Counted from the stretch's first letter, positions 6,460 to 51,988 are shown. The stretch is DNA of 64,000 bases from Alphaproteobacteria bacterium (GCA_017935245.1 JAGBHZ010000002.1:27735-91734); one strand, 5' to 3'. The notes: generated by a model from the letters alone, not told the origin. Program-made: numbers and translations.

Positions 6460-8536
6460 ATTCGGCCAATGTTCCCACCGACATTGTAATGCGGCGGATA
6501 CCACTGCTGATTGATTTTTCCTTGTTAATTTTTGCCTTTAATATTTCACCGGTGTGATAAACGTGTGTCCCACCACACAGTTCGCATGAAACATCGCCGG
6601 CGGTTATAACCTTGACTGTGTTGCCGTATTTTTCACCGAATAATGCCATTGCGCCTTTTTTAACGGCGTCGTCCATTGACATTTCTTCGTGTTCAACCGG
6701 CATATCTGCGGCAATCCATTTATTAACCAATTCTTCGACCGCCATTTTTTCGTCCGCCGTCATCGCGCGTCCAAACGAGAAGTCAAATCGAACCGAATCC
6801 GGACTGACCTTAGACCCACGTTGTTCGACATCTTCGTTCAAGACGTGGCGTAACGCCGCCTGTAACAAGTGGGTTGCCGTATGTGCACGTGCGGTTTGTT
6901 GACGTGTTGCCGCGTTGATTACGGGCGAAACGACATCCCCAACCGATACATCTGATTTTAAAACACCCTTGTGTATAACAATGTTATCGACGCGTGCGGC
7001 CTCGGCAACGGTCATGACGACATTGTCGCCGCGCTTTAATTCACCACTGTCGCCAACCTGGCCCCCCTGGGTGCCATAGAACGTTGTTTTATCCAGTGCG
7101 ATTTCAACTTCGTCGCCCGCGTTTGCCGATGAAACAAATTCGCCACCGCGCAGAATAGACAACACACGTGATTCCATTTGGGTTGGGGCGTATTTTGCCG
7201 CATCATCGGTTGCCGCCAGATCCGTTTGTGATTCCCAGAATATACGTGTGCCCTTGGTATTGGCGCGTGAACGTTCTTTTTGTTCTGCCATTGATTTTTC
7301 AAATCCCGCAACATCAACATCTATATTTTTATCGCGTAAAATCATTTGGGTTAAATCCAGCGGGAAACCATACGTGTCAAACAGTTTAAATGCCACATCG
7401 CCCGGCAATATATTGTTGTTCAGTTTTGGCAATTCACTTTCCAGCAATTTCATACCGTTTTGCAGCATGTCTGCAAAAGAATTCTCTTCGTTCTGAATAA
7501 TTTCAACAACACGTTGCTGATTCGCGGCCAGTTCTGGATACGCCGCCCCCATTTCTGTAATCAGCGCCGGATACAGTTTTGACAACAATGCCCCCCGATG
7601 CCCCAGTATTTGTCCATGGCGCATTGCGCGACGCAAGATACGACGAATTACATATCCGCGGTCTGTGTTTGATGGGATAACACCGTCTGCGATTGCGAAT
7701 CCAACCGAACGCAGATGGTCTGTGATAACCTTGAAACTGGCGACGTTTTCCGCTGTTTCGGCAACGCCTGTTATGTCAGACACGGCCCGTTTCAGGTTCA
7801 CAAATAAATCCGTATCATAATTATCTGTTTTACCCTGTAAAATCGATGCGAAACGTTCCAGACCGGCCCCCGTATCAACGTTTTGCTTTGGCAGTGGTGT
7901 CAAATTACCATTTGCATCGCGGTCAAATTGCATGAACACGTCGTTCCAAATTTCGACCCAGCGTCCACCGTCTTCGTCGCTTGACCCCGGCATACCGCCC
8001 GGCAAATCCGCCCCCATGTCATAGTGCATTTCTGTGCACGGACCACATGGGCCGGTATCGCCCGCCGACCACCAGTTATCTTTATCCCCCAATCGAATTG
8101 CATCTTTGCCGGTGATTTTTTTCCATATTTCGGTTGCTTCGTCATCACTGTAATGCGTGGTTACAACGATGCGATTTGGATCCAGACCAAAAACGCGTGT
8201 CAACAATTCCCACGACATTTCGATGGCGCCGGCCTTGAAATAATCACCAAACGACCAATTCCCCAGCATTTCAAAGAACGTATGATGACGACCGTCAAAA
8301 CCCACATCTTCCAGGTCATTGTGTTTGCCACCCGCGCGAATGCATTTCTGAACGTCTGCAACACGTGGCGCAAATGCCGGTTCGGTGCCTTGTAAAATAT
8401 TTTTCCATGGGACCATGCCAGCAACTGTAAATAACAGTGTTGGGTCATTCGGTATCAGTGATGCCGACGGCACAATTTTATGTCCACGCGATTCAAAATA
8501 TTGTAAGAAAGACTTTCTTATATCATCATATGTCAT
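6458..8536 (-). CDS. alaS: Alanyl-tRNA synthetase, short form (about 692 aa, no C-Ala domain)
   Basis: DPTLLFTVAGM, HHTFFEMLGNWSFGDYFK, DTGAGLER, editing motifs HTATHLL and CGGTH; ends right after GIRRI; start at MTYDDIR with RBS aaagga. Confidence 0.95.
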   Translation of the reverse strand: MTYDDIRKSFLQYFESRGHKIVPSASLIPNDPTLLFTVAGMVPWKNILQGTEPAFAPRVADVQKCIRAGGKHNDLEDVGFDGRHHTFFEMLGNWSFGDYFKAGAIEMSWELLTRVFGLDPNRIVVTTHYSDDEATEIWKKITGKDAIRLGDKDNWWSAGDTGPCGPCTEMHYDMGADLPGGMPGSSDEDGGRWVEIWNDVFMQFDRDANGNLTPLPKQNVDTGAGLERFASILQGKTDNYDTDLFVNLKRAVSDITGVAETAENVASFKVITDHLRSVGFAIADGVIPSNTDRGYVIRRILRRAMRHGQILGHRGALLSKLYPALITEMGAAYPELAANQQRVVEIIQNEENSFADMLQNGMKLLESELPKLNNNILPGDVAFKLFDTYGFPLDLTQMILRDKNIDVDVAGFEKSMAEQKERSRANTKGTRIFWESQTDLAATDDAAKYAPTQMESRVLSILRGGEFVSSANAGDEVEIALDKTTFYGTQGGQVGDSGELKRGDNVVMTVAEAARVDNIVIHKGVLKSDVSVGDVVSPVINAATRQQTARAHTATHLLQAALRHVLNEDVEQRGSKVSPDSVRFDFSFGRAMTADEKMAVEELVNKWIAADMPVEHEEMSMDDAVKKGAMALFGEKYGNTVKVITAGDVSCELCGGTHVYHTGEILKAKINKEKSISSGIRRITMSVGTLAE

Positions 8537-10427: not shown

Positions 10428-10446
10428 ATCGGTTTGATTGCTAAAT

Positions 10447-10474
10447 AAAAATCCCCGCAGTTGCGGGGATTTTT
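10447..10474 (+). terminator. hup terminator
   Basis: aaaaatccccgc-agtt-gcggggattttt. Confidence 0.8.
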
Positions 10475-10548
10475 TAGTGGTGAGCCGTAAGTGGTTAGTG
10501 ATTGTGTGCGGCATCCGCCGCACACAATCACTAACCACTAATCACTAA
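10474..10548. repeat. REP/MITE-like 23-bp perfect inverted repeat built from heptamer units
   Basis: agtggttagtgattgtgtgcggc (10490-10512), loop atcc, gccgcacacaatcactaaccact (10517-10539), plus extra ttagtgg/aatcact units. Confidence 0.75.
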
Positions 10549-10573
10549 GATAAACTTTTATTTATCAATGTAT

Positions 10574-10602: not shown

Positions 10603-10609
10603 ATGTGTG

Positions 10610-10695
10610 TTATGACCGATGGTCATAATGGGGTGTCAGAACCCGTGCAATACGCGTTTGGAAACGAAATCCGGCGCGCCAGTGGCGTGTTTTTT
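10610..10695 (+). ncRNA. Putative C4/CI-like antisense RNA, copy 1
   Basis: Hairpins ttatgacc/ggtcataa and atggg-gtgtcagaa-cccgt, terminator-like cgcgcc/ggcgtg + T6; loop tcagaac is complementary to gttctga at 10792-10798. Confidence 0.5.
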
Positions 10696-10700
10696 CGTAT

Positions 10701-10859
10701 ATGAATCCAGACGAAAATCAAAAAACTCCTGATGTATTACGTGTCAGGAGGGTTGCGAATATATTGAATAAGCACACAATTCGTATTGATTGTTCTGAAC
10801 CTCCTGACCACTCGAATTTATTCGGTGGTTTTTTCAAACATGAAAAAAGGGAGATTTAG
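10701..10859 (+). CDS. Putative 52-aa leader ORF spanning the antisense target and switch
   Basis: MNPDENQKTPDVLRVRRVAN...KREI; stop 3 nt before the next ATG; below the ORF-track cutoff, may not be translated. Confidence 0.25.
   Translation: MNPDENQKTPDVLRVRRVANILNKHTIRIDCSEPPDHSNLFGGFFKHEKREI
10726..10834 (+). promoter_or_regulatory. Putative antiterminator/terminator switch, copy 1
   Basis: tcaggagg (10744-10751) pairs with cctcctga (10800-10807) or with ctcctga (10726-10732); the competing hairpin accac-cgaa/ttcg-gtggt is followed by a T tract. Confidence 0.45.
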
Positions 10860-12142: not shown

Positions 12143-12190
12143 TGGTGCGAGCAAAGGGGCTCGAACCCTCGACCTCAACCTTGGCAAGGT
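12143..12190 (-). repeat. att site: duplicated 3' 48 nt of tRNA-Gly
   Basis: tggtgcgagcaaaggggctcgaaccctcgacctcaaccttggcaaggt, identical to 18964-19011; displaced terminator aacaccc/gggtgtt at 12119-12136. Confidence 0.95.
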
Positions 12191-12318
12191 AAATGCAGGC
12201 CGTTTTCTATCTTTTTACTACTTTTGCTCATTTGCTATTTTTACCTTGTTTCCTGCGTATTTTACCTTTACTTTTCGTTTCTGTCAATGTATAATTATAT
12301 CAAAGTTTTACTATTATC

Positions 12319-12341
12319 TTGTTGATATAGTGTTGATAAAA
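12319..12341. repeat. Putative integrase arm-type site (left)
   Basis: ttgttgatatagtgttgataaaa matches 18873-18895 at 22 of 23 positions and contains tandem tgttgat. Confidence 0.6.
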
Positions 12342-12372
12342 TATCAAGATAATAATAATCAAGGGGGACAAT

Positions 12373-13629
12373 ATGCCAGTTGAAAAGTTAACTTTGCCAT
12401 TCCTCAAAAATGTTAAATTGCCTGTTGGCAAACAGGTATTCTATTTTGATGAAAGTATGCCGCGATTTGGTGTGAGTGTCTTTCCGTCAGGCCGCAAGAC
12501 ATTTTTCATAAAATATCAGAACGAATACGGCAAGCCAAAATGGTTAAAAATCGGTCAATTTCCTATTATGACACTTGAACAAGCAAGAGAGGCAGCACGG
12601 GCAGCGTTGGTAAAAGTTGATTTGAACAAAGACCCCGCCAACGAAAAGCAAGGCAAACGCCACGCCAAAACAGTATCAGAATTGTGTGATTTATACCTGG
12701 AAATTGGTGTTGCACATAAAAAGCCGACAACCATAGCAAGCGACAAAGGACGCATAGAAACGCTTATAAAACCACTTATCGGTGCAATTCCTATTGAGGC
12801 ACTGACTCGCACAGATGTAACAACAATGATGACGGACATTATCAAGGGCGAAAAAATTCAAAAACACGAACCAAGTGGCAAACCTCGCGGCATCAGACGC
12901 GTTACTGGTGGCTCGGGTGCAGCAGCCCGAACCATTCAAACCCTTGGGGCAATAATGACTTTTGCCAAGAACCAAGGTTTCATATCAGAAAACCCCGTCC
13001 AAGGTGTAAAAAAACCAAAAGACAAGGTCCGCGATATATTCCTTACTTGGGACGAGGTGCGTGCCCTTGGTCGCATTTTAGCATTGCCACAGATACAGCA
13101 AATATACCCCCACATATGCACAATTATTCCTTTGCTTTTGTTAACGGGGTGTCGCAGAAATGAAATTTTAGAGTTACGGTGGGAATACATAGATTTTGAA
13201 AACCAAGTATTTAGATTTCCAGACACCAAAACTGGCAAACAAAATCGTCCATTTGGTATTGCCGCAAAGAAACTATTACAAAATATCAAAAACCAGACTC
13301 CGCACGCTAACACAGGCTGGGTATTTCCGTCTGTGCGTGGCGATAGCCATATTACAAATCTGTTAAAAACATTCAAAACCATATGTGCCACCAGAGATGA
13401 ACACGGACAAAGAATACTAAACAGGGACGATTTAACCTTGCACGCATTAAGACACACTTTTGCGACATTGGGGTCTGACCTTGGTTATGTTGAAAATACG
13501 ATGTCTGCATTATTGGGGCACCATTTGAGGACAGTAACAAGCCGTTACACACACGCCATTGACAAGAGCCTTATACTTGCGGCCAACGATATATCTTTGG
13601 CATTAGAAAAAGCATTAAACAATAAATAA
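12373..13629 (+). CDS. int: Tyrosine recombinase/integrase with N-terminal arm-binding domain
   Basis: LLTGCRRNEI, TKTG, LHALRHTFAT, LLGH...VTSRYTH; N-terminal FGVSVFPSGRKTFFIKY. Confidence 0.95.
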   Translation: MPVEKLTLPFLKNVKLPVGKQVFYFDESMPRFGVSVFPSGRKTFFIKYQNEYGKPKWLKIGQFPIMTLEQAREAARAALVKVDLNKDPANEKQGKRHAKTVSELCDLYLEIGVAHKKPTTIASDKGRIETLIKPLIGAIPIEALTRTDVTTMMTDIIKGEKIQKHEPSGKPRGIRRVTGGSGAAARTIQTLGAIMTFAKNQGFISENPVQGVKKPKDKVRDIFLTWDEVRALGRILALPQIQQIYPHICTIIPLLLLTGCRRNEILELRWEYIDFENQVFRFPDTKTGKQNRPFGIAAKKLLQNIKNQTPHANTGWVFPSVRGDSHITNLLKTFKTICATRDEHGQRILNRDDLTLHALRHTFATLGSDLGYVENTMSALLGHHLRTVTSRYTHAIDKSLILAANDISLALEKALNNK

Positions 13630-13640
13630 AGGGGGATAAT

Positions 13641-14222
13641 ATGCCACAAAAAAACTTAAAACGGGTGACAATATCAAAAAAGAAAACAACCAAAAACAAT
13701 ATCAAATTCAAACCTGCAAAAATACAGATTGTTGACCATTTTAACAATATGACACCTAAACAAATAGACGAATTTTGGGACAAAGCATTCAAAGTTAATG
13801 AAAAAGAACAAGCATTATTTGACCGCTATAAATTACAAAAACCATCTAGAAAAATACCAAAAGAAGCCCGAATGCTTATTCATAAAATGGCAAAAGAATT
13901 GGGATATTGGAAAGACGAAAATGTAATAGATTTAGTAAGTGGACCTGGTCGCCCAGGCAAGTGGGTAAATATTTTTGGGTGGACTTTTTACAACAGAGTG
14001 CAAGAACAAAAACAACAAACCCCACAACAAACAACCAATGCTTGCATACGAATCGTGAAAAACAAAAAAGAATACCGAAATGATTATGGGGACATACCTG
14101 TAAAAACACTGCAAGCCAGATACAAAGAATTAAAGAAAAAATATGAGCAGTGCAAAGATATTATTGACACACTAAAAGAATACGAACCTGATTTACAAGA
14201 ACTTGCAAAACAAATTCAATAA
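13641..14222 (+). CDS. Hypothetical protein of the element
   Basis: RBS aagggg, Lys-rich 193-aa ORF directly after int. Confidence 0.65.
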   Translation: MPQKNLKRVTISKKKTTKNNIKFKPAKIQIVDHFNNMTPKQIDEFWDKAFKVNEKEQALFDRYKLQKPSRKIPKEARMLIHKMAKELGYWKDENVIDLVSGPGRPGKWVNIFGWTFYNRVQEQKQQTPQQTTNACIRIVKNKKEYRNDYGDIPVKTLQARYKELKKKYEQCKDIIDTLKEYEPDLQELAKQIQ

Positions 14223-14380
14223 AACACCTCTTATATGGGACGAAAACCGTATAGATAATATCCGTGCCTCTTTCTTGAAGGACGGATATTTTTTTGCTTT
14301 ATCCGTCCCAAGAACGAATGAAATGATATGGGTAAAGATTGGCAAGAAAGCGAATCAAAACTATAACAAGAGGTAATGAA

Positions 14381-14602
14381 ATGACAAAATTTTTCACAAA
14401 GAAACAGGCGTCAAATTATATGACGGCCGAATTAGGGTTACCAGTGGCAGAAAAGACACTGTCAAAACTGATAACCATTGGCGGTGGTCCAGAATTTCAC
14501 AAATTCAATAAAAGGGTCGTTTATACCCAAACCGCACTTGATGAATGGGCAAAATCTCGTTTATCAAAACCACACAAAAATTCCAGCGAACAGGAGGCAT
14601 AA
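14381..14602 (+). CDS. AlpA/excisionase-like winged-HTH protein
   Basis: FTKKQASNYM...TLSKLITIGGGPEFHKFNKRVVYTQTALDEW. Confidence 0.75.
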   Translation: MTKFFTKKQASNYMTAELGLPVAEKTLSKLITIGGGPEFHKFNKRVVYTQTALDEWAKSRLSKPHKNSSEQEA

Positions 14603-15781
14603 ATGGCAACAAACGACACAGAAAAATTACCGTTTAAGGAAATTATTCCTTGGAACGAACCTGTTGACGGCACAGAATTGTTAAATAGTATTGAGGCAAT
14701 ATTCACTCGGTATTTATCATTGCCAGACGGTGCAGCCACCACCCAAGCCGTGTGGGTATTGCATACCTATTGCATTGACTTGTTTGAATTTACTCCACGC
14801 CTCTGTCTTGTATCGCCAGAAAAAAGGTGTGGAAAGACAACAAATTTAAGGTTGATTGAAAATCTATCTTACAGACCTGTCAATGTGGCTAGCACCTCAA
14901 CCGCAAGTTTATTTCGTGGCATTGACAAGTGGCACCCCACTATGTGCATTGACGAGGCAGACACATTCATTAACGGTTACGATGAGTTACGAGGCATTAT
15001 TAACGCAGGTTACGAACAAGACGGAAAAGTTAGCAGAACAGAATGTGTCGGCAAAAAATATGATGTTAAGTTGTTTCGTTGCTTTTCCCCTGTTGCGATT
15101 GCTGCCATTGGCTCAATACCAGGAACAATCGCGGACCGTGGTATTACAATTTGTATGCAACGCAAAAAAAGCGATGAACACAAAGACAAATTGCGAATTT
15201 CAAAAATCAAACCCAATTTATATGAAATTCAGCGTAAATGCTTACGCTTTGCAAAAGACAATAAAGGGGCAATAATAAATGCCGACCCAGATATTCCAAA
15301 TGTATTTAACGACAGGGCCGCAGATATTTGGGAAACATTATTCAAAATTGTTTCTGTTGTGTCCCCAGAATGGACGGAACGGCTGCGAATTGCCTCGTTG
15401 CTATTGTATAAATCAAAGATTGCGTCTGACCCACAATCTATAAGGGTTACACTATTGTCAGATATAAGGGACATTTTCAAAGAAAAAAATAACCCTAAAT
15501 ATATTGCCACCGAAAATTTGTTAAACGAACTCAAAGGCATAAAAATATCGCCTTGGGAACATTACAACAACAGAGGGTTAAACGACCATTCTTTGGCAGG
15601 GTTATTATCGTCATTCAATATAATATCGCACCAAATGAGGGCCCCAGACGGTAGAAAATACCGCTATGTGCTGAAAGATTTTCAAGACGCTTTTGAACGG
15701 TATTTGGCACCTCTACAAGATAACGAAAAAGATTGTGCCAGCGTGCCAGATGATACGGACATATTAGACATTCCAGATTAA
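14603..15781 (+). CDS. DUF3631-like replication/primase-associated NTPase of satellites
   Basis: PWNEPVDGTELL, WVLHTY, SPEKRCGKTT (Walker A), IDEADT, IINAGY, DRAADIWETL. Confidence 0.7.
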   Translation: MATNDTEKLPFKEIIPWNEPVDGTELLNSIEAIFTRYLSLPDGAATTQAVWVLHTYCIDLFEFTPRLCLVSPEKRCGKTTNLRLIENLSYRPVNVASTSTASLFRGIDKWHPTMCIDEADTFINGYDELRGIINAGYEQDGKVSRTECVGKKYDVKLFRCFSPVAIAAIGSIPGTIADRGITICMQRKKSDEHKDKLRISKIKPNLYEIQRKCLRFAKDNKGAIINADPDIPNVFNDRAADIWETLFKIVSVVSPEWTERLRIASLLLYKSKIASDPQSIRVTLLSDIRDIFKEKNNPKYIATENLLNELKGIKISPWEHYNNRGLNDHSLAGLLSSFNIISHQMRAPDGRKYRYVLKDFQDAFERYLAPLQDNEKDCASVPDDTDILDIPD

Positions 15782-15810
15782 GCAACTGTAACCAGTGGCA
15801 CAATGGCACA
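15734..15810. repeat. Convergent hexamer iteron pairs, candidate replication origin
   Basis: gtgcca at 15735 and 15743; its reverse complement tggcac at 15796 and 15804; 8-bp spacing in both pairs. Confidence 0.5.
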
Positions 15811-15831
15811 ATAAAAACAGAGGACACAAAA

Positions 15832-16215
15832 ATGGCAAACGAACAAAACTTAAAAGTATTAAGCCCGAACGAAGCACGAGAACTCGGTCGCATTGGAGGA
15901 CAGATGTCAGGAAAAGCACGCAGAGAACGCAAAAAATTGCGTGATATGGTTATGTCTATGGCAAACGGTCCTTTGCCATTTGACAATGATTATAGTCGCA
16001 ACCGATTCATAGAAAAATATCACATAGACAACCCGACAATTATAGACGGAATACTTGCACAGTTGGTTTCATCTGCATTGTATGGTGATATGGCAGCAAT
16101 TAAACTGTTTTTATCTTTAACGGCAGATACACCACAAATACCATTCCCAGCAGGACCATTAACAAAACAAAAATTTAAGGTTTCGTATGAAGCACAAAAA
16201 CAAAACTTTGAATAA
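15832..16215 (+). CDS. Terminase small subunit-like protein
   Basis: MANEQNL...EARELGRIGGQMSGKARRERKKLRD and ALYGDMAAIKL resemble phage TerS-like proteins. Confidence 0.55.
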   Translation: MANEQNLKVLSPNEARELGRIGGQMSGKARRERKKLRDMVMSMANGPLPFDNDYSRNRFIEKYHIDNPTIIDGILAQLVSSALYGDMAAIKLFLSLTADTPQIPFPAGPLTKQKFKVSYEAQKQNFE

Positions 16216-16232
16216 AACCAAAAGGAAACAAA

Positions 16233-16550
16233 ATGAATCAAACACTTTTTTACACACATTTCCCATATTGCATACAGCATTTAGGTGGGGACAGATACAT
16301 AATCTTGAATCGGAATTATAAACCACTTGGGCAAACAAATTTTGAATATGTGGACTATAATAAAGACCCGTCTGTTGTGCGTATGAAAATCACGACGAAA
16401 CAAGCCGAAAAACTATCTTACAAAGGCAAAGTTGAGTCAGACACTATTTGGTTGTATGAAAACACATACAACACATTTAGAAACCCGCAAGAATTTAACA
16501 ATTATGTAACCAGATTAAAATTATTGGCCACATTAACACCAAAAATCTAA
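16233..16550 (+). CDS. Hypothetical protein of the element
   Basis: RBS aagga; FPYCIQ...YIILNRNYKPLG motif recalled from mobile-element hypotheticals, no function assignable. Confidence 0.65.
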   Translation: MNQTLFYTHFPYCIQHLGGDRYIILNRNYKPLGQTNFEYVDYNKDPSVVRMKITTKQAEKLSYKGKVESDTIWLYENTYNTFRNPQEFNNYVTRLKLLATLTPKI

Positions 16551-16593
16551 TGTATGCTCTTTACTTTTTCTAAATAAGCATATAAAATAAGAA

Positions 16594-16815
16594 CTGAATC
16601 CGAGAGATTGGGTTCAGGGCTATTGCAGGCCTTATGTGTTCGGTGCGAAAGCATCGTTAAAAATGATGTTTCGGTGTTTTCCGCACCGTAATATCCCTGG
16701 CTTATGGTCGGGGAGTCGTTGGTTATAAAACAGGGGTAACCCGAAAGCCGCGGAATCATTTAACACATATGATTGCAATCTCCCTGACCGCTCTTTCTTG
16801 GGCGGTTAATTTTTT
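16594..16815 (+). ncRNA. Putative structured ncRNA inside the satellite
   Basis: TTTACT-17-TAAAAT promoter (16560-16588), nested helices 16622-16779, terminator gaccgctc/gggcggtt + T tract. Confidence 0.45.
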
Positions 16816-16833
16816 ATCAAAAAAGGCAAAAAA

Positions 16834-17331
16834 ATGAAAACAACGCGTCATTTAATTTTCTTGATTTTTGGGCTATTTTGTATTCCTGCACAAGCAAATT
16901 ATAATACCACTTGCCAAGGTATAGGCAATTCCGTTTATTGCAACACTTATGATTATGGTGCACCGTCAAACTATGGGGCTAATTGGGGAAATTCATTTTT
17001 ATCTGGGCTTAATGCAGGTATGCAAGCAAGAAAAAACGCCATAGAAACTCAAAACGCATTATTACAACAACAAATATTATTACAACAAGCGCAGCAAATG
17101 GCACGACAACAGCAACCCAAAATTTCATCGTGTAAAATATACAAGATTGTCGGGAAAGAATTTCCTGTTGGTCGTGTTGAACTTGTATTAACAAGAGTTG
17201 CAAGCGACAAATATCAGATTGTTGGCACAGACGCGTATGTTTTAACAAAAGATTGTTTCAGATATATGGAAAAACAACCTGTGATAGCGGATATAAACTA
17301 TTCGCCAAGCGACAGAATTTATTTTGAATAA
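16834..17331 (+). CDS. Secreted cargo protein
   Basis: Signal peptide ending PAQA; CQGIGNSVYCN motif; Gln-rich linker. Confidence 0.7.
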   Translation: MKTTRHLIFLIFGLFCIPAQANYNTTCQGIGNSVYCNTYDYGAPSNYGANWGNSFLSGLNAGMQARKNAIETQNALLQQQILLQQAQQMARQQQPKISSCKIYKIVGKEFPVGRVELVLTRVASDKYQIVGTDAYVLTKDCFRYMEKQPVIADINYSPSDRIYFE

Positions 17332-17348
17332 ACAAAGGGCTTTCTAAT

Positions 17349-17636
17349 ATGACGCGTATATTTTTATGTTTTATTTGTTGTTGTGTTCTGTCTGGGTGCA
17401 ACGAGGCTATGTTGCAGGGTTTAGCGGCAGGGTTAAGCCAATACGGACAAAACACCCAGGCAACAAACTATACATACACCCAGCCCACCACATACCGAGC
17501 ACCAACAACATATAACCGCATTGGGAACACGGTATATTCATCAAATGGGACAATGTATAACCAAATTGGCAATACCGTATATGGCACAGACGGCACTCAA
17601 TGCAGTAAAATTGGAAACACTGTTTATTGTAATTAA
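17349..17636 (+). CDS. Cargo lipoprotein with IGNTVY repeats
   Basis: Lipobox VLSGC; three IGNTVY repeats. Confidence 0.7.
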   Translation: MTRIFLCFICCCVLSGCNEAMLQGLAAGLSQYGQNTQATNYTYTQPTTYRAPTTYNRIGNTVYSSNGTMYNQIGNTVYGTDGTQCSKIGNTVYCN

Positions 17637-17657
17637 CAACTATAAAAAGGAAAAAAA

Positions 17658-18287
17658 ATGAAACAAATATCACTAGCAATAATTCTGTTTTCGTGTTTGG
17701 TCGCAACCAATGCATATGCGTTAAGTAAAAAGAGCCACGAAAAGGTAAATCTGTGTGTAAATATGTTAGGAGTGTCAACCTGTGAAATGGTTGAGGAAAA
17801 AGATGTTTATCAAACAGTTTATAATATGAAATACGACAGTTATTTTGGTTCTAGTTTAGAGTATTTTGATAAAATGGGCCTAGATAGTCATTATTTTGTA
17901 GATGATATGAAAAAATATACAGAATGTTATGCGGAAGCGTTCGCAAAAGAAGTAACGATGAAAGATGTCAATATGATATTTGACGAAACGACACCACCAG
18001 CAGCAAAAAATGCTTTGATAGACAATATTGCTTATAAATATGTAGATAAATGTAAGAAAAAATACGCACCATATATGAATAAAATGGAAGATGTATTACA
18101 GGTATATTTAGAAAAAGTGTGTGGCTCAACAACCCCAAGTAAATCAGTGGCAAAAAAATGCAAGAAACAATATAAAAATGAAGATGATATTATTAAGTGC
18201 CAACAAGAAAACGATGAATGGTATAAATGTCTAAATAAAATTATGACAGATACAGGCGATAAAATTATGAAAAATATGGCAGAGTAA
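17658..18287 (+). CDS. Secreted helical Cys-containing cargo protein
   Basis: Signal peptide MKQISLAIILFSCLVATNAYA; several spaced Cys. Confidence 0.7.
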   Translation: MKQISLAIILFSCLVATNAYALSKKSHEKVNLCVNMLGVSTCEMVEEKDVYQTVYNMKYDSYFGSSLEYFDKMGLDSHYFVDDMKKYTECYAEAFAKEVTMKDVNMIFDETTPPAAKNALIDNIAYKYVDKCKKKYAPYMNKMEDVLQVYLEKVCGSTTPSKSVAKKCKKQYKNEDDIIKCQQENDEWYKCLNKIMTDTGDKIMKNMAE

Positions 18288-18297
18288 GGGGAAAACA

Positions 18298-18522
18298 ATG
18301 AAAAAAATGATAATATTATGTCTTGGGTTGGGTTTGTTAGTTATTGGAACGGCAGACGCGGCATATACTCGCGGTCATATGCGTCGTAATGGCACATATG
18401 TATCAGGCTATCATCATACAACAGCAGACAAAACAAGAATAAATAACTATTCAACTCGCGGTAATTACAACCCTTATACAGGCAAAACAGGCACAAAACC
18501 ACTAACTAAATACGGGTATTAA
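18298..18522 (+). CDS. Small secreted cargo protein
   Basis: Signal peptide; NGTYVSGY...NNYSTRGNYNPYTGKTGT, a motif of a widespread small hypothetical family. Confidence 0.7.
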   Translation: MKKMIILCLGLGLLVIGTADAAYTRGHMRRNGTYVSGYHHTTADKTRINNYSTRGNYNPYTGKTGTKPLTKYGY

Positions 18523-18523
18523 A

Positions 18524-18661
18524 ATGGGAATCGGCACATTAACTCTTCTTTTTGTGATTCTTAAACTCTGTGGAGCCATATATTGGTCTTGGTTGTGGGT
18601 GTTGTCCCCACTATGGATTGGAGGTTTGCTTGCTTTGATTATAATGGGCAGCGAAAATTAA
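18524..18661 (+). CDS. 45-aa membrane protein (phage-type)
   Basis: MGIGTLTLLFVILKLCGAIYWSWLWVLSPLWIGG; not in the ORF track; the LKL.G...WSW.WV.SPLW pattern is common in phage small membrane proteins. Confidence 0.6.
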   Translation: MGIGTLTLLFVILKLCGAIYWSWLWVLSPLWIGGLLALIIMGSEN

Positions 18662-18872
18662 AACAATTTAATGGCAAGTTTTCGTTATATTCGTCATTTA
18701 CAATTTTTACACGAGTCAAAACACCATACCCACAATTATCAGACCCCGTGCCACCCCTCCCCAGGGGTCTTTTTTAACCAATATACGACACCAGAGGACA
18801 CACCATCGCAAATCAAAAACTCCGATTCTGTTCGCTTTGTTTTTCTATATTATTCCAACTTTTTCATACGAT

Positions 18873-18895
18873 TTGTTGATATACTGTTGATAAAA
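18873..18895. repeat. Putative integrase arm-type site (right)
   Basis: ttgttgatatactgttgataaaa matches 12319-12341 at 22 of 23 positions. Confidence 0.6.
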
Positions 18896-18898
18896 AAG

Positions 18899-18922
18899 AA
18901 AGACGGTAATTCTAACCGTCTT
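18899..18922 (-). terminator. Terminator supplied by the element downstream of tRNA-Gly
   Basis: aagacggt-aattcta-accgtctt with a T tract on the minus strand. Confidence 0.55.
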
Positions 18923-18963
18923 TATGTTTCTGTGTAAGTATTTGATTCTACTTACAAAAACTT

Positions 18964-19040
18964 TGGTGCGAGCAAAGGGGCTCGAACCCTCGACCTCAAC
19001 CTTGGCAAGGTTGCGCTCTAGCCAACTGAGCTACGCTCGC
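18964..19040 (-). tRNA. tRNA-Gly(GCC), integration target
   Basis: Reverse complement GCGAGCGTAGCTCAGTTGGCTAGAGCGCAACCTTGCCAAGGTTGAGGTCGAGGGTTCGAGCCCCTTTGCTCGCACCA. Confidence 0.97.
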
Positions 19041-51688: not shown

Positions 51689-51732
51689 TAATTTTATAGA
51701 AAACAAAAAAAATATCGATTATAATGCATGTA

Positions 51733-51796
51733 TGGTGATGGCTTGTCGCCACGGGTGTCGAAATCCCGTAGCTAACGTCTGACAAAGCCCAGACGT
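51733..51796 (+). ncRNA. Putative C4/CI-like antisense RNA, copy 2
   Basis: TATAAT at 51720-51725; hairpins ggtga/tcgcc, acggg-tgtcgaaat-cccgt, acgtctg/cagacgt; loop tcgaaat is complementary to atttcga at 51882-51888. Confidence 0.5.
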
Positions 51797-51821
51797 AAAA
51801 CATGTGCCCTACAACCAATAT

Positions 51822-51924
51822 CGGTTGGAGGGCGGGTGGAATAAGGATAAAATCCAAATACACCGCACTATTTAGCTATAGATTTCGAACCTCCAACCGC
51901 CTATATTTAACAGGGTGGTTTTTT
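51822..51924 (+). promoter_or_regulatory. Putative antiterminator/terminator switch, copy 2
   Basis: cggttggagg (51822-51831) pairs with cctccaaccg (51890-51899), competing with the aaccgcc/gggtggtt hairpin + T tract. Confidence 0.45.
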
Positions 51925-51988
51925 ATAATCATTATTATTGCCCCCCATAACATATCTTATCTCCAAAAACAAAACGGGGGGGCAACTT

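Follow-up and report, generated by a model that had tools for sequence, protein, structure and literature searches.

The window, that is, the whole 64,000-nt stretch of DNA analysed here, contains an integrated island in which a gap of 283 bp (16551-16833) is free of open reading frames, as a first-pass annotation of the sequence had stated. Does this gap hold an RNA, and what would such an RNA do at the border between the core genes of the island and its cargo? The host is an AT-rich alphaproteobacterium near Candidatus Enterousia, an uncultured gut bacterium with a reduced genome. The best genome match of the 105-aa protein encoded next to the gap is a Ca. Enterousia MAG (92% identity), and DNA runs with the locus come from sheep, bovine and other gut metagenomes. 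The island spans 6.8 kb (12143-19011) and is marked by an integrase and by flanking repeats of 48 bp; these are perfect direct repeats at its two ends (12143-12190 and 18964-19011) and correspond to the 3' portion of tRNA-Gly(GCC). Every gene of the island lies on the + strand: a tyrosine integrase (12373-13629), a 193-aa ORF (13641-14222), an AlpA-like HTH protein (14339-14602), a DUF3631 protein (14603-15781) belonging to the island core operon, a phrog_2412 protein (15832-16215) and the 105-aa ORF (16233-16550), which lies directly 5' of the gap and is a facultative neighbour of the RNA described below. Beyond the gap lies the cargo (16834-18522), four small ORFs whose products begin with signal peptides or resemble lipoproteins at the N-terminus; the first of these ORFs (16834-17331) encodes a 165-aa protein with a signal peptide.

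Structure, homologues and transcription of the RNA

Positions 16595-16815 of the + strand encode a structured non-coding RNA of about 222 nt, equipped with a promoter and a terminator of its own. The first-pass annotation had proposed a discrete RNA of this kind, of about 220 nt, within an integrated element, and the fold, the covariation and the transcription signals support the proposal. For the + strand, the folding energy (-89.3 kcal/mol, z = -5.89) is not reached by any of 200 shuffled sequences. The minus strand folds more weakly (-67 kcal/mol), and numerous G-U pairs are compatible with the + strand alone. The GC content of the RNA region is 0.42-0.45 against 0.33-0.37 in the flanks, a moderate difference in the direction originally claimed.

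A sigma-70-type promoter is located at 16560-16588, with TTTACT at -35 (16560-65), a spacer of 17 nt and TAAAAT at -10 (16583-88). The site is present as it had been annotated, but its 9/12 match taken alone is no better than chance, promoter-like sites numbering 27 against 24.7 expected. The -10 element is kept about 7 nt 5' of the 5' hairpin in 10/10 copies of the RNA. Both the -35 and the -10 are kept across the island homologues, and the homologue L002 and both paralogues in the window have TATAAT at an equal distance. Transcription probably starts at about 16594-16596, at the foot of the 5' hairpin. An intrinsic terminator followed by a U-run is predicted at 16785-16808, in the place originally assigned to it, and is the sole predicted + strand terminator between the island core genes and the cargo.

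Homologues were gathered through the neighbouring 105-aa protein, and a first, full-length covariance model (R1) was built from three sequences, whose alignment already contains 22 compensatory pairs out of 73. Model R1 found two further copies in the window, both intergenic, which brings the number to three in 64 kb. One paralogue (51727-51933, +; 31.8 bits, z = -5.4) has the same architecture from P1 to the terminator, with a TATAAT and a terminator to itself; having no + strand ORF downstream, it is an orphan copy, and no RNA runs are listed for it. The second (10604-10840, +; 23.6 bits, z = -4.7) lies between an HU gene and a pair of genes whose products are secreted and Cys-rich. In both, a TATAAT about 7 nt 5' of the 5' hairpin precedes the P1 hairpin, GGG, stacked long-range helices, three inner arms, GAAC-CUCC and a terminator. 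The final alignment of ten sequences combines these two chromosomal paralogues with the eight distinct island copies recovered with R1 (that of the window, L001, L013, L014, L002, L044, L048 and L050). Standard pairs make up 96.4% of its paired cells, and 39 of the 73 pairs are compensatory, with a change on both sides, in a sample whose diversity is thin: seven of the eight island copies are mutually close, and the two paralogues add to them. None of 500 shuffles reaches the observed level, and pairing falls to 35-50% when the partners are slid by 1-3 columns.

The RNA opens with the hairpin P1 (16595-16616), UGAAUCCGA-GAGA-UUGGGUUCA, in which 8/9 pairs (helix 1) have changed on both sides; it is the ctgaatc/ggttcag hairpin of the first-pass annotation. 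The 5' strands of three long-range helices follow at 16617-16640, namely P2 (GGG, 16617-19), P3 (UUGCAG, 16623-28) and P4 (CUUAUGUGUU, 16631-40), and their 3' strands lie within 16754-16789 in the reverse order (P4 16762-71, P3 16773-78, P2 16782-84). The helices previously drawn as attgca/tgcaat and tatgtgtt/aacacata (16633-40/16762-69, coordinates that are right) are P3 and P4, with 3/6 and 9/10 compensatory pairs in the ten-sequence alignment. The arm H1 (16641-16688) is of variable length. Its closing stem CGGUG/CACCG is conserved and is the only part kept in L002 and the paralogues, while its inner pairing, which includes the GAAA hairpin drawn earlier, is ambiguous; the separate hairpins cggtgc-gaaa-gcatcg and cggtg/caccg of the first reading are not borne out in that form and compete with this single longer arm. 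In the hairpin H2 (16690-16715; helix 7, 6/9 pairs compensatory), a 5' arm that we call X5 (AAUAUCCCUGGCU, 16690-16702) pairs with a 3' arm, X' (GGUCGGGGAG, 16706-15). The arm H3 (16716-16753) has an internal loop AUAAAACA and a tip GGGG-UAA-CCC followed by GAA. It co-varies (helix 8), is the portion of the RNA closest to sRNA-Xcc1, and retains in the consensus, as gggg-taa-ccc, the tip annotated as gggg-taa-cccc. Another annotated pairing, aatgat/atcatt, exists, but only UGAU/AUCA is conserved and nothing co-varies, so that a pseudoknot here is possible at most. The segments AAUCAU/AUGAUU (16754-59/16769-74) can alternatively form the hairpin known in sRNA-Xcc1 as H4. Near the 3' end lies Xd (CUCCCUGACC, 16780-89), which also pairs with X'; X' is thus the strand common to two folds, pairing with X5 in fold A and with Xd in fold B. 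The intrinsic terminator, GACCGCUC-UUUCUU-GGGCGGUU followed by AAUUUUUU (16786-16815; helix 10), shares 4 nt of its 5' arm with Xd.

Contigs of 162-259 nt in four ruminant metatranscriptome assemblies lie over 16618-16827 or its variants, and the flanking coding sequences have a depth of 0 in the same assemblies. The contigs, which are assembled sequences rather than mapped transcript ends, show that the RNA is transcribed and suggest that it is abundant; one of them extends 12 nt beyond the U-run and carries little weight either way. Variants are numerous in the DNA metagenomes of these habitats; they share the H1-H3 core and diverge at the P3 and P4 strands, and metagenome assemblies break where these strands lie. 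A BLAST search of phage and plasmid records with the RNA found no match, and a scan of viral contigs for exact patterns of the H2/H3 core returned 0 matches.

It is exceedingly improbable that the region acts as something other than such an RNA, be it a DNA element (an origin or a protein-binding site) or a small coding gene on either strand, or that it is a self-cleaving ribozyme. Its location downstream of the DUF3631 gene of the core operon and the presence of minus-strand ORFs of 70 and 48 aa would agree with a DNA element or a gene. Among close homologues, however, no ORF is conserved in frame on either strand, and a coding gene was rejected on this ground; the compensatory changes with their many G-U pairs fit the + strand only; a promoter and a terminator flank the region, which is transcribed; and it contains neither iterons nor tandem repeats. 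The ribozyme-like RNA considered at first pass finds no ribozyme family match in the Rfam scans.

Cargo genes and the 105-aa protein

In nine of the ten copies, an ORF with a Shine-Dalgarno sequence starts on the same strand 12-31 nt past the terminator. In the window, the first cargo ORF (16834) starts 18 nt past the U-run, so close that there is no room for a promoter of its own. The first ORFs differ among islands at this equal position: where the window has the 165-aa secreted protein, L001 encodes a lipoprotein of 263 aa, L013 and L014 a membrane protein of 96 aa, and L002 a Cys-rich protein of 383 aa. The first-pass annotation had missed both this placement directly before the cargo genes and the alternative, terminator-disrupting fold discussed below. 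The islands L038-L043 have the same core, including a 105-aa protein of 88% identity, and end right after the gene for that protein, with neither cargo nor RNA. The RNA therefore travels with the cargo and not with the protein.

This distribution bears on the suggestion that the RNA is a dedicated partner of the 105-aa protein, which would be an antiterminator or a regulator binding the RNA, or the other half of a toxin-antitoxin or defence pair. We regard such a partnership as unlikely. Wherever an Enterousia-type island has the RNA, the gene for the protein lies next to it, and to this extent the adjacency noted earlier is real; a dedicated pairing is opposed by L038-L043, which have the protein and no RNA, and by the two paralogous RNAs and all the phage sRNA-Xcc1 elements, none of which is accompanied by the protein. 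The protein belongs to a small family of 18 clusters with an invariant PYCI...LNRNYKP motif and has no match in Pfam, the PHROG function categories, PADLOC or NCBIfam. Its AlphaFold model is confident (pLDDT 88.7) and matched no solved structure, only two uncharacterised phage proteins. The protein bears no toxin, defence or RNA-binding signature, which argues against the toxin-antitoxin or anti-phage pair envisaged at first, and the proteins neighbouring the RNA lend no support to a defence or toxin role. Unlike the type III antitoxin ToxI, whose tandem repeats lie beside an endoribonuclease toxin, the RNA has no tandem repeats, and its neighbour matches nothing in PADLOC, Pfam or among solved folds; an antitoxin of the tandem-repeat kind was rejected for the former reason.

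More distant relatives of the protein were collected from about 30 loci in cyanobacteria, Opitutia, Saccharibacteria and viral contigs. Only two of these contain a related RNA: L002, where it lies 1.3 kb downstream of the homologue, and L032, a GC-rich contig in which a full-length homologue of 113 aa lies 180 nt 5' of a canonical sRNA-Xcc1. About 25 others have no detectable RNA, a further point against a dedicated partner. The recurrence of the protein family with an RNA of the sRNA-Xcc1 type over such a distance suggests more than chance. As RNA and protein each also occur alone, any link between them is facultative.

Relation to sRNA-Xcc1 and two competing folds

A scan of the window with Rfam at gathering thresholds, a check likewise suggested at first pass, identified three tRNAs only and no family at threshold for the RNA; scans of the whole gap and of its 5' half by E-value gave nothing credible. 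Below threshold, sRNA-Xcc1 (RF02221; gathering cut-off 53 bits) aligns with the 3' half of the RNA (16707-16796; 31.4 bits, E = 2.8e-4) and with that of the orphan paralogue (51823-51906; 35.3 bits). The earlier remark that the RNA matches no named family is amended accordingly. In the opposite direction, the top matches of model R1 in the E. coli O157 prophage locus L037 and in the Stx-type phages L055 and L056 are their sRNA-Xcc1 elements (13-17 bits). On the strength of the sub-threshold and reciprocal matches, we treat the RNA as a distant, extended relative of sRNA-Xcc1 and not as a member by the Rfam criterion. It is best described as an extended two-state variant of the wider sRNA-Xcc1 kind.

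sRNA-Xcc1 is found in integron cassettes, transposons, plasmids, prophages (including Stx phages) and genomic islands. The integron cassette most widespread in Xanthomonas has it 5' of symE (bioRxiv 10.1101/2025.06.18.660453), and APSE phages have it 5' of an ORF6N gene (bioRxiv 10.1101/2020.03.17.996009). The cited literature offers no established mechanism for it. The RNA of the window shares with this family its carriage by mobile elements directly 5' of a same-strand ORF, and its occurrence in several copies per genome: Xylella has seven, five of which form a cluster within a genomic island (PMC12189769), and the 64-kb window has three. The structural likeness extends to a closing helix of 9-10 bp, here X':Xd, around two inner hairpins, the second of them (H4) a candidate here. 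Both RNAs have an AUA-AA-A internal loop and a GC tip of 3-4 bp followed by GAA; the first inner arm of sRNA-Xcc1 has the loop AUACAAUA, the tip CCC-GAAA-GGG and GAA, and H3 of the window RNA has AUAAAACA, GGGG-UAA-CCC and GAA. A joiner of the UUUCGAAC type lies 5' of Xd and reads AUUUCGAACCUCC in the paralogue and GUUUCGAACCUCC in L032. The second inner hairpin, H4, can form here in fold B through AAUCAU/AUGAUU, a pairing that does not co-vary; the strands that would make up its loop and 3' side belong in fold A to P4 and P3, which do co-vary.

The RNA differs from sRNA-Xcc1 in that its only conserved promoter lies about 115 nt 5' of X'. The transcript therefore has an extra 5' domain, consisting of P1, the P2-P4 strands, H1 and X5, and this domain competes with the sRNA-Xcc1 fold. 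Here a U-run terminator overlaps Xd, the genes that follow are for secreted or membrane cargo rather than for an antirepressor or SymE, and the host is an uncultured gut alphaproteobacterium with a reduced genome. A hairpin past Xd, GACCGC...GCGGUUA, is common to the window RNA and E. coli and falls outside the 87-nt Rfam model; RF02221 thus covers part of the conserved unit, excluding this hairpin and the upstream pairing partner. The RNA of about 222 nt may be processed into a species of sRNA-Xcc1 size (about 88 nt).

X5 and Xd form a direct repeat, and in every copy the pairing X':Xd (-19 to -22 kcal/mol) is stronger than X5:X' (-14 to -17 kcal/mol). In the window RNA, X':Xd comprises 10 bp at -20.6 kcal/mol. 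Across the three paralogue types, this helix is 96% paired with 3/10 compensatory pairs, against 40-62% in slid controls. X' differs by type (GGUCGGGGAG, GGUUGGAGG and GUCAGGAGG), and both of its partners have changed to match, so that the three-part complementarity of X5, X' and Xd co-varies in the two chromosomal paralogues. Two further helices draw on Xd: its CCC (16782-84) is the 3' strand of P2, and its last four bases, GACC (16786-89), begin the terminator stem. Since Xd is shared in this way, folds A and B are mutually exclusive. For the full-length RNA, the calculated advantage of fold A over a forced fold B is 9-21 kcal/mol; for transcripts truncated 5' of the 3' arm of the terminator, it is 3.5-13 kcal/mol. 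Given that fold A wins energetically, a switch to fold B needs an active trigger.

The reading that we favour, at about an even chance, is that of a cis-acting attenuator leader whose two folds gate the cargo and which also accumulates as a small RNA. A leader of about 222 nt would be made from its own constitutive-looking promoter and by read-through from the island core operon, and would end at the intrinsic terminator 18 nt 5' of the first cargo gene. In the thermodynamically preferred fold A, P1 would be followed by the stacked helices P2-P4 closing a four-way junction with the arms H1-H3; the terminator would form, transcription would stop, and a compact, stable small RNA would be released. 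In fold B, X' (GGUCGGGGAG) would drop X5 and pair with Xd (CUCCCUGACC), the near-duplicate of X5 downstream, rebuilding the helix that defines sRNA-Xcc1. P2 would lose its 3' strand and the terminator stem 4 nt to this pairing; the junction would thereby open, the terminator would weaken, and RNA polymerase might then run on into the cargo genes. Against this reading, Xd takes up only these 4 nt of the terminator stem, and the 'terminator' of L002 has no U-run. The trigger might be a protein (the 105-aa product, for instance), a different RNA, or the kinetics of folding. We infer from the complementarity and the energies that fold B forms in vivo upon such a trigger and causes read-through. 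With a leader of two folds at this position, the element would divide the conserved core from the variable cargo and gate cargo transcription.

The RNA might instead be a stand-alone small RNA acting in trans, as published for sRNA-Xcc1, in which case its terminator merely ends the RNA and the downstream genes are incidental; it could pair with mRNAs through, for example, its CUCCC/CCUCC anti-Shine-Dalgarno-like stretches or its loops. We see this as possible, though on balance doubtful. In Xanthomonas campestris, sRNA-Xcc1 is a Northern-verified small RNA of 88 nt described as trans-acting (PMC2996969), and in EHEC it is abundant with low ribosome occupancy (PMC5331693). The orphan paralogue at 51727, which has no ORF downstream, and the short, discrete metatranscriptome contigs point the same way. 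Yet a same-strand ORF with no room for a promoter adjoins nine of the ten copies and every one of the five canonical loci examined, and the anti-Shine-Dalgarno-like stretches are paired in both folds. A function in trans would, besides, be compatible with a role in cis.

The conserved unpaired nucleotides of the multi-helix junction, together with an expression platform of competing terminator and anti-terminator pairings, also invite comparison with small-molecule riboswitches. The four-way junction would then be an aptamer whose ligand stabilises fold A (OFF) or fold B (ON). The likeness to terminator-type riboswitches lies in the exclusive terminator/anti-terminator pairing coupled to a conserved junction; the difference lies in the cargo genes, which vary among islands and form no consistent functional class. 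The genes downstream are heterogeneous, encoding small secreted or membrane proteins here and antirepressors or SymE in relatives (bioRxiv 10.1101/2025.06.18.660453), with no metabolic theme; the family is confined to mobile elements; and the RNA has no Rfam riboswitch match. A riboswitch is for these reasons quite improbable.

Phage elements and other regulatory RNAs

An alignment of the present RNA sequences with the phage sRNA-Xcc1 cores by MAFFT and RNAalifold was of unusable quality, and a descriptor scan took its place. The published coordinates of the EDL933 copy correspond in the current record to a hok/sok locus; the copy itself is at 7628-7708 of L037. In all five canonical loci examined, a same-strand ORF lies 40-65 nt downstream, the distance being 40-50 nt in the phage and prophage records: an antirepressor gene in Aaphi23, the Stx2 phage F039 and the EDL933 prophage, a gene annotated as 'antitermination' in phage P13803 (L056), and a 72-aa ORF in L032. 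The canonical loci also have a small module with a U-run terminator 5' of sRNA-Xcc1, and a segment 85-115 nt 5' of X' pairs with the H4/J2 part of the element. In P13803, GGUG-CUCAAAAC...GCAAGUAG pairs with CUACUUGC-GGUUUUGAG-CGCC at -36.8 kcal/mol (z = -4.5), and colinear pairings resembling P2, P3 and P4 occur with weaker statistics in Aaphi23 and L032. The related Stx-type loci L055 and L037 show compensatory changes relative to each other, UUCAAAG:CUUUGAA against CAAAUAAG:CUUAUUUG. The pairing of the upstream phage RNA with X' is marginal (p = 0.03-0.3).

This arrangement recalls the immunity RNAs of phages. In the immI region of P1, the C4 strand a'b' lies between the near-duplicates a1b1 and a2b2, 5' of icd-ant, and in C4 RNAs of the P1 type specificity shifts through compensatory substitutions. 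The likeness of the RNA described here to C4 (P1/P7 immI) and IsrK is one of logic only: X5, X' and Xd follow each other in the order of a1b1, a'b' and a2b2, 5' of a gene. Neither Rfam C4 (RF01695) nor isrK (RF01394) matches 16400-16950 or 16590-16722 at E <= 10. C4 and IsrK belong to antirepressor operons and are processed by RNase P, whereas the genes downstream of the present RNA encode secreted or membrane proteins. The output of C4 is the occlusion of a ribosome-binding site followed by Rho termination; here it would be intrinsic termination or anti-termination. Phage leaders such as lambda 6S/tR' and StxS are similar in placing a structured leader between a constitutive promoter and an intrinsic terminator, directly 5' of the gated genes, and in that the terminated product accumulates as a small RNA. 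They differ in that the present locus has no Q-type antiterminator or qut site nearby, its switch appearing instead to be built into the RNA by way of competing helices.

These comparisons allow a broader reading, which we advance tentatively and hold to be rather doubtful as a whole. The catalogued sRNA-Xcc1 would correspond to no more than the 3' module of a regulatory unit, much larger and older, that mobile elements carry; in this unit, the upstream strand and H4/J2/Xd would constitute a cis antisense-target pair following the logic of P1 c4. In the Enterousia islands, the whole unit would be fused into the RNA of 222 nt, the variable long-range helices P3 and P4 would determine specificity, with each island or paralogue thereby controlling its own cargo privately, and the 105-aa family might flip the switch.

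For sRNA-Xcc1, a known and mechanistically unexplained family, the locus offers a testable mechanism: a two-state leader with an alternative helix overlapping the terminator, at the boundary between core and cargo. If correct, this mechanism would explain why sRNA-Xcc1 elements always lie just 5' of antirepressor, symE or cargo genes, and would link them functionally to immunity RNAs of the C4/IsrK type. It would also provide a handle on how small integrative islands control their accessory genes in uncultured gut bacteria with reduced genomes.

Island boundaries, cargo and minimal versions

The integrase island that carries the structured, probable leader RNA (16595-16815, plus strand) is bounded by perfect 48-bp att direct repeats (12143-12190 and 18964-19011), which correspond to the 3' part of tRNA-Gly. 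A second repeat of 23 bp, TTGTTGATATA(G/C)TGTTGATAAAA, lies just inside either island end (12319-12341 and 18873-18895) and may be an arm site of the integrase. The cargo ORFs downstream of the RNA (16834-18522) encode small, secreted or lipoprotein-like products that contain Gln-rich stretches as well as repeated IGNTVY motifs; no family was matched by these proteins. Islands that are otherwise alike carry differing cargo. Minimal island versions in contigs from bovine and other gut metagenomes (L038-L043) run from the integrase to a 107-aa gene, a homologue of the 105-aa gene upstream of the RNA, and stop directly after it, with neither RNA nor cargo.

Chromosomal paralogues of the RNA

Two chromosomal paralogues lie on the plus strand of the window, and both have a promoter and a terminator of their own. 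The copy at 51727-51933 is an orphan; the copy at 10604-10840, positioned just left of the island's attL, is followed by two secreted Cys-rich protein genes. The nearby region just 3' of the HU gene (10443-10561) gave several Rfam matches below threshold: Leu_leader, at 44 bits where the cut-off is 50; on the minus strand, Phe_leader and istR; and miRNA-like hits on both strands. The region probably represents a long palindromic terminator hairpin.

Canonical sRNA-Xcc1 and its surroundings

Canonical sRNA-Xcc1, a distant relative of the RNA's 3' half, is preceded in phages by a small U-run-terminated module and by a strand pairing with its H4/J2 region (L056, 2404-2566; L054, 2386-2588; L055 and the E. 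coli O157 prophage L037, minus strand, 7594-7790). This pairing shows co-variation between two Stx-type loci. Because phage sRNA-Xcc1 has both the upstream module and the pairing strand, the unit seems to be larger than the Rfam model, which would capture only part of it. On the GC-rich metagenome contig L032, the 105-aa protein has a full-length homologue (2247-2588) encoded 180 nt upstream of canonical sRNA-Xcc1 (2766-2840); beyond the sRNA come an ORF of 72 aa and a T5orf172-like gene.

The RNA in gut communities

Contig breaks recur at the edges (16637-16641 and 16758) of the conserved H1-H3 core, which comprises the inner arms, in both metagenome and metatranscriptome contigs. In the sampled communities the RNA thus behaves like a dispersed repeat whose flanks vary.
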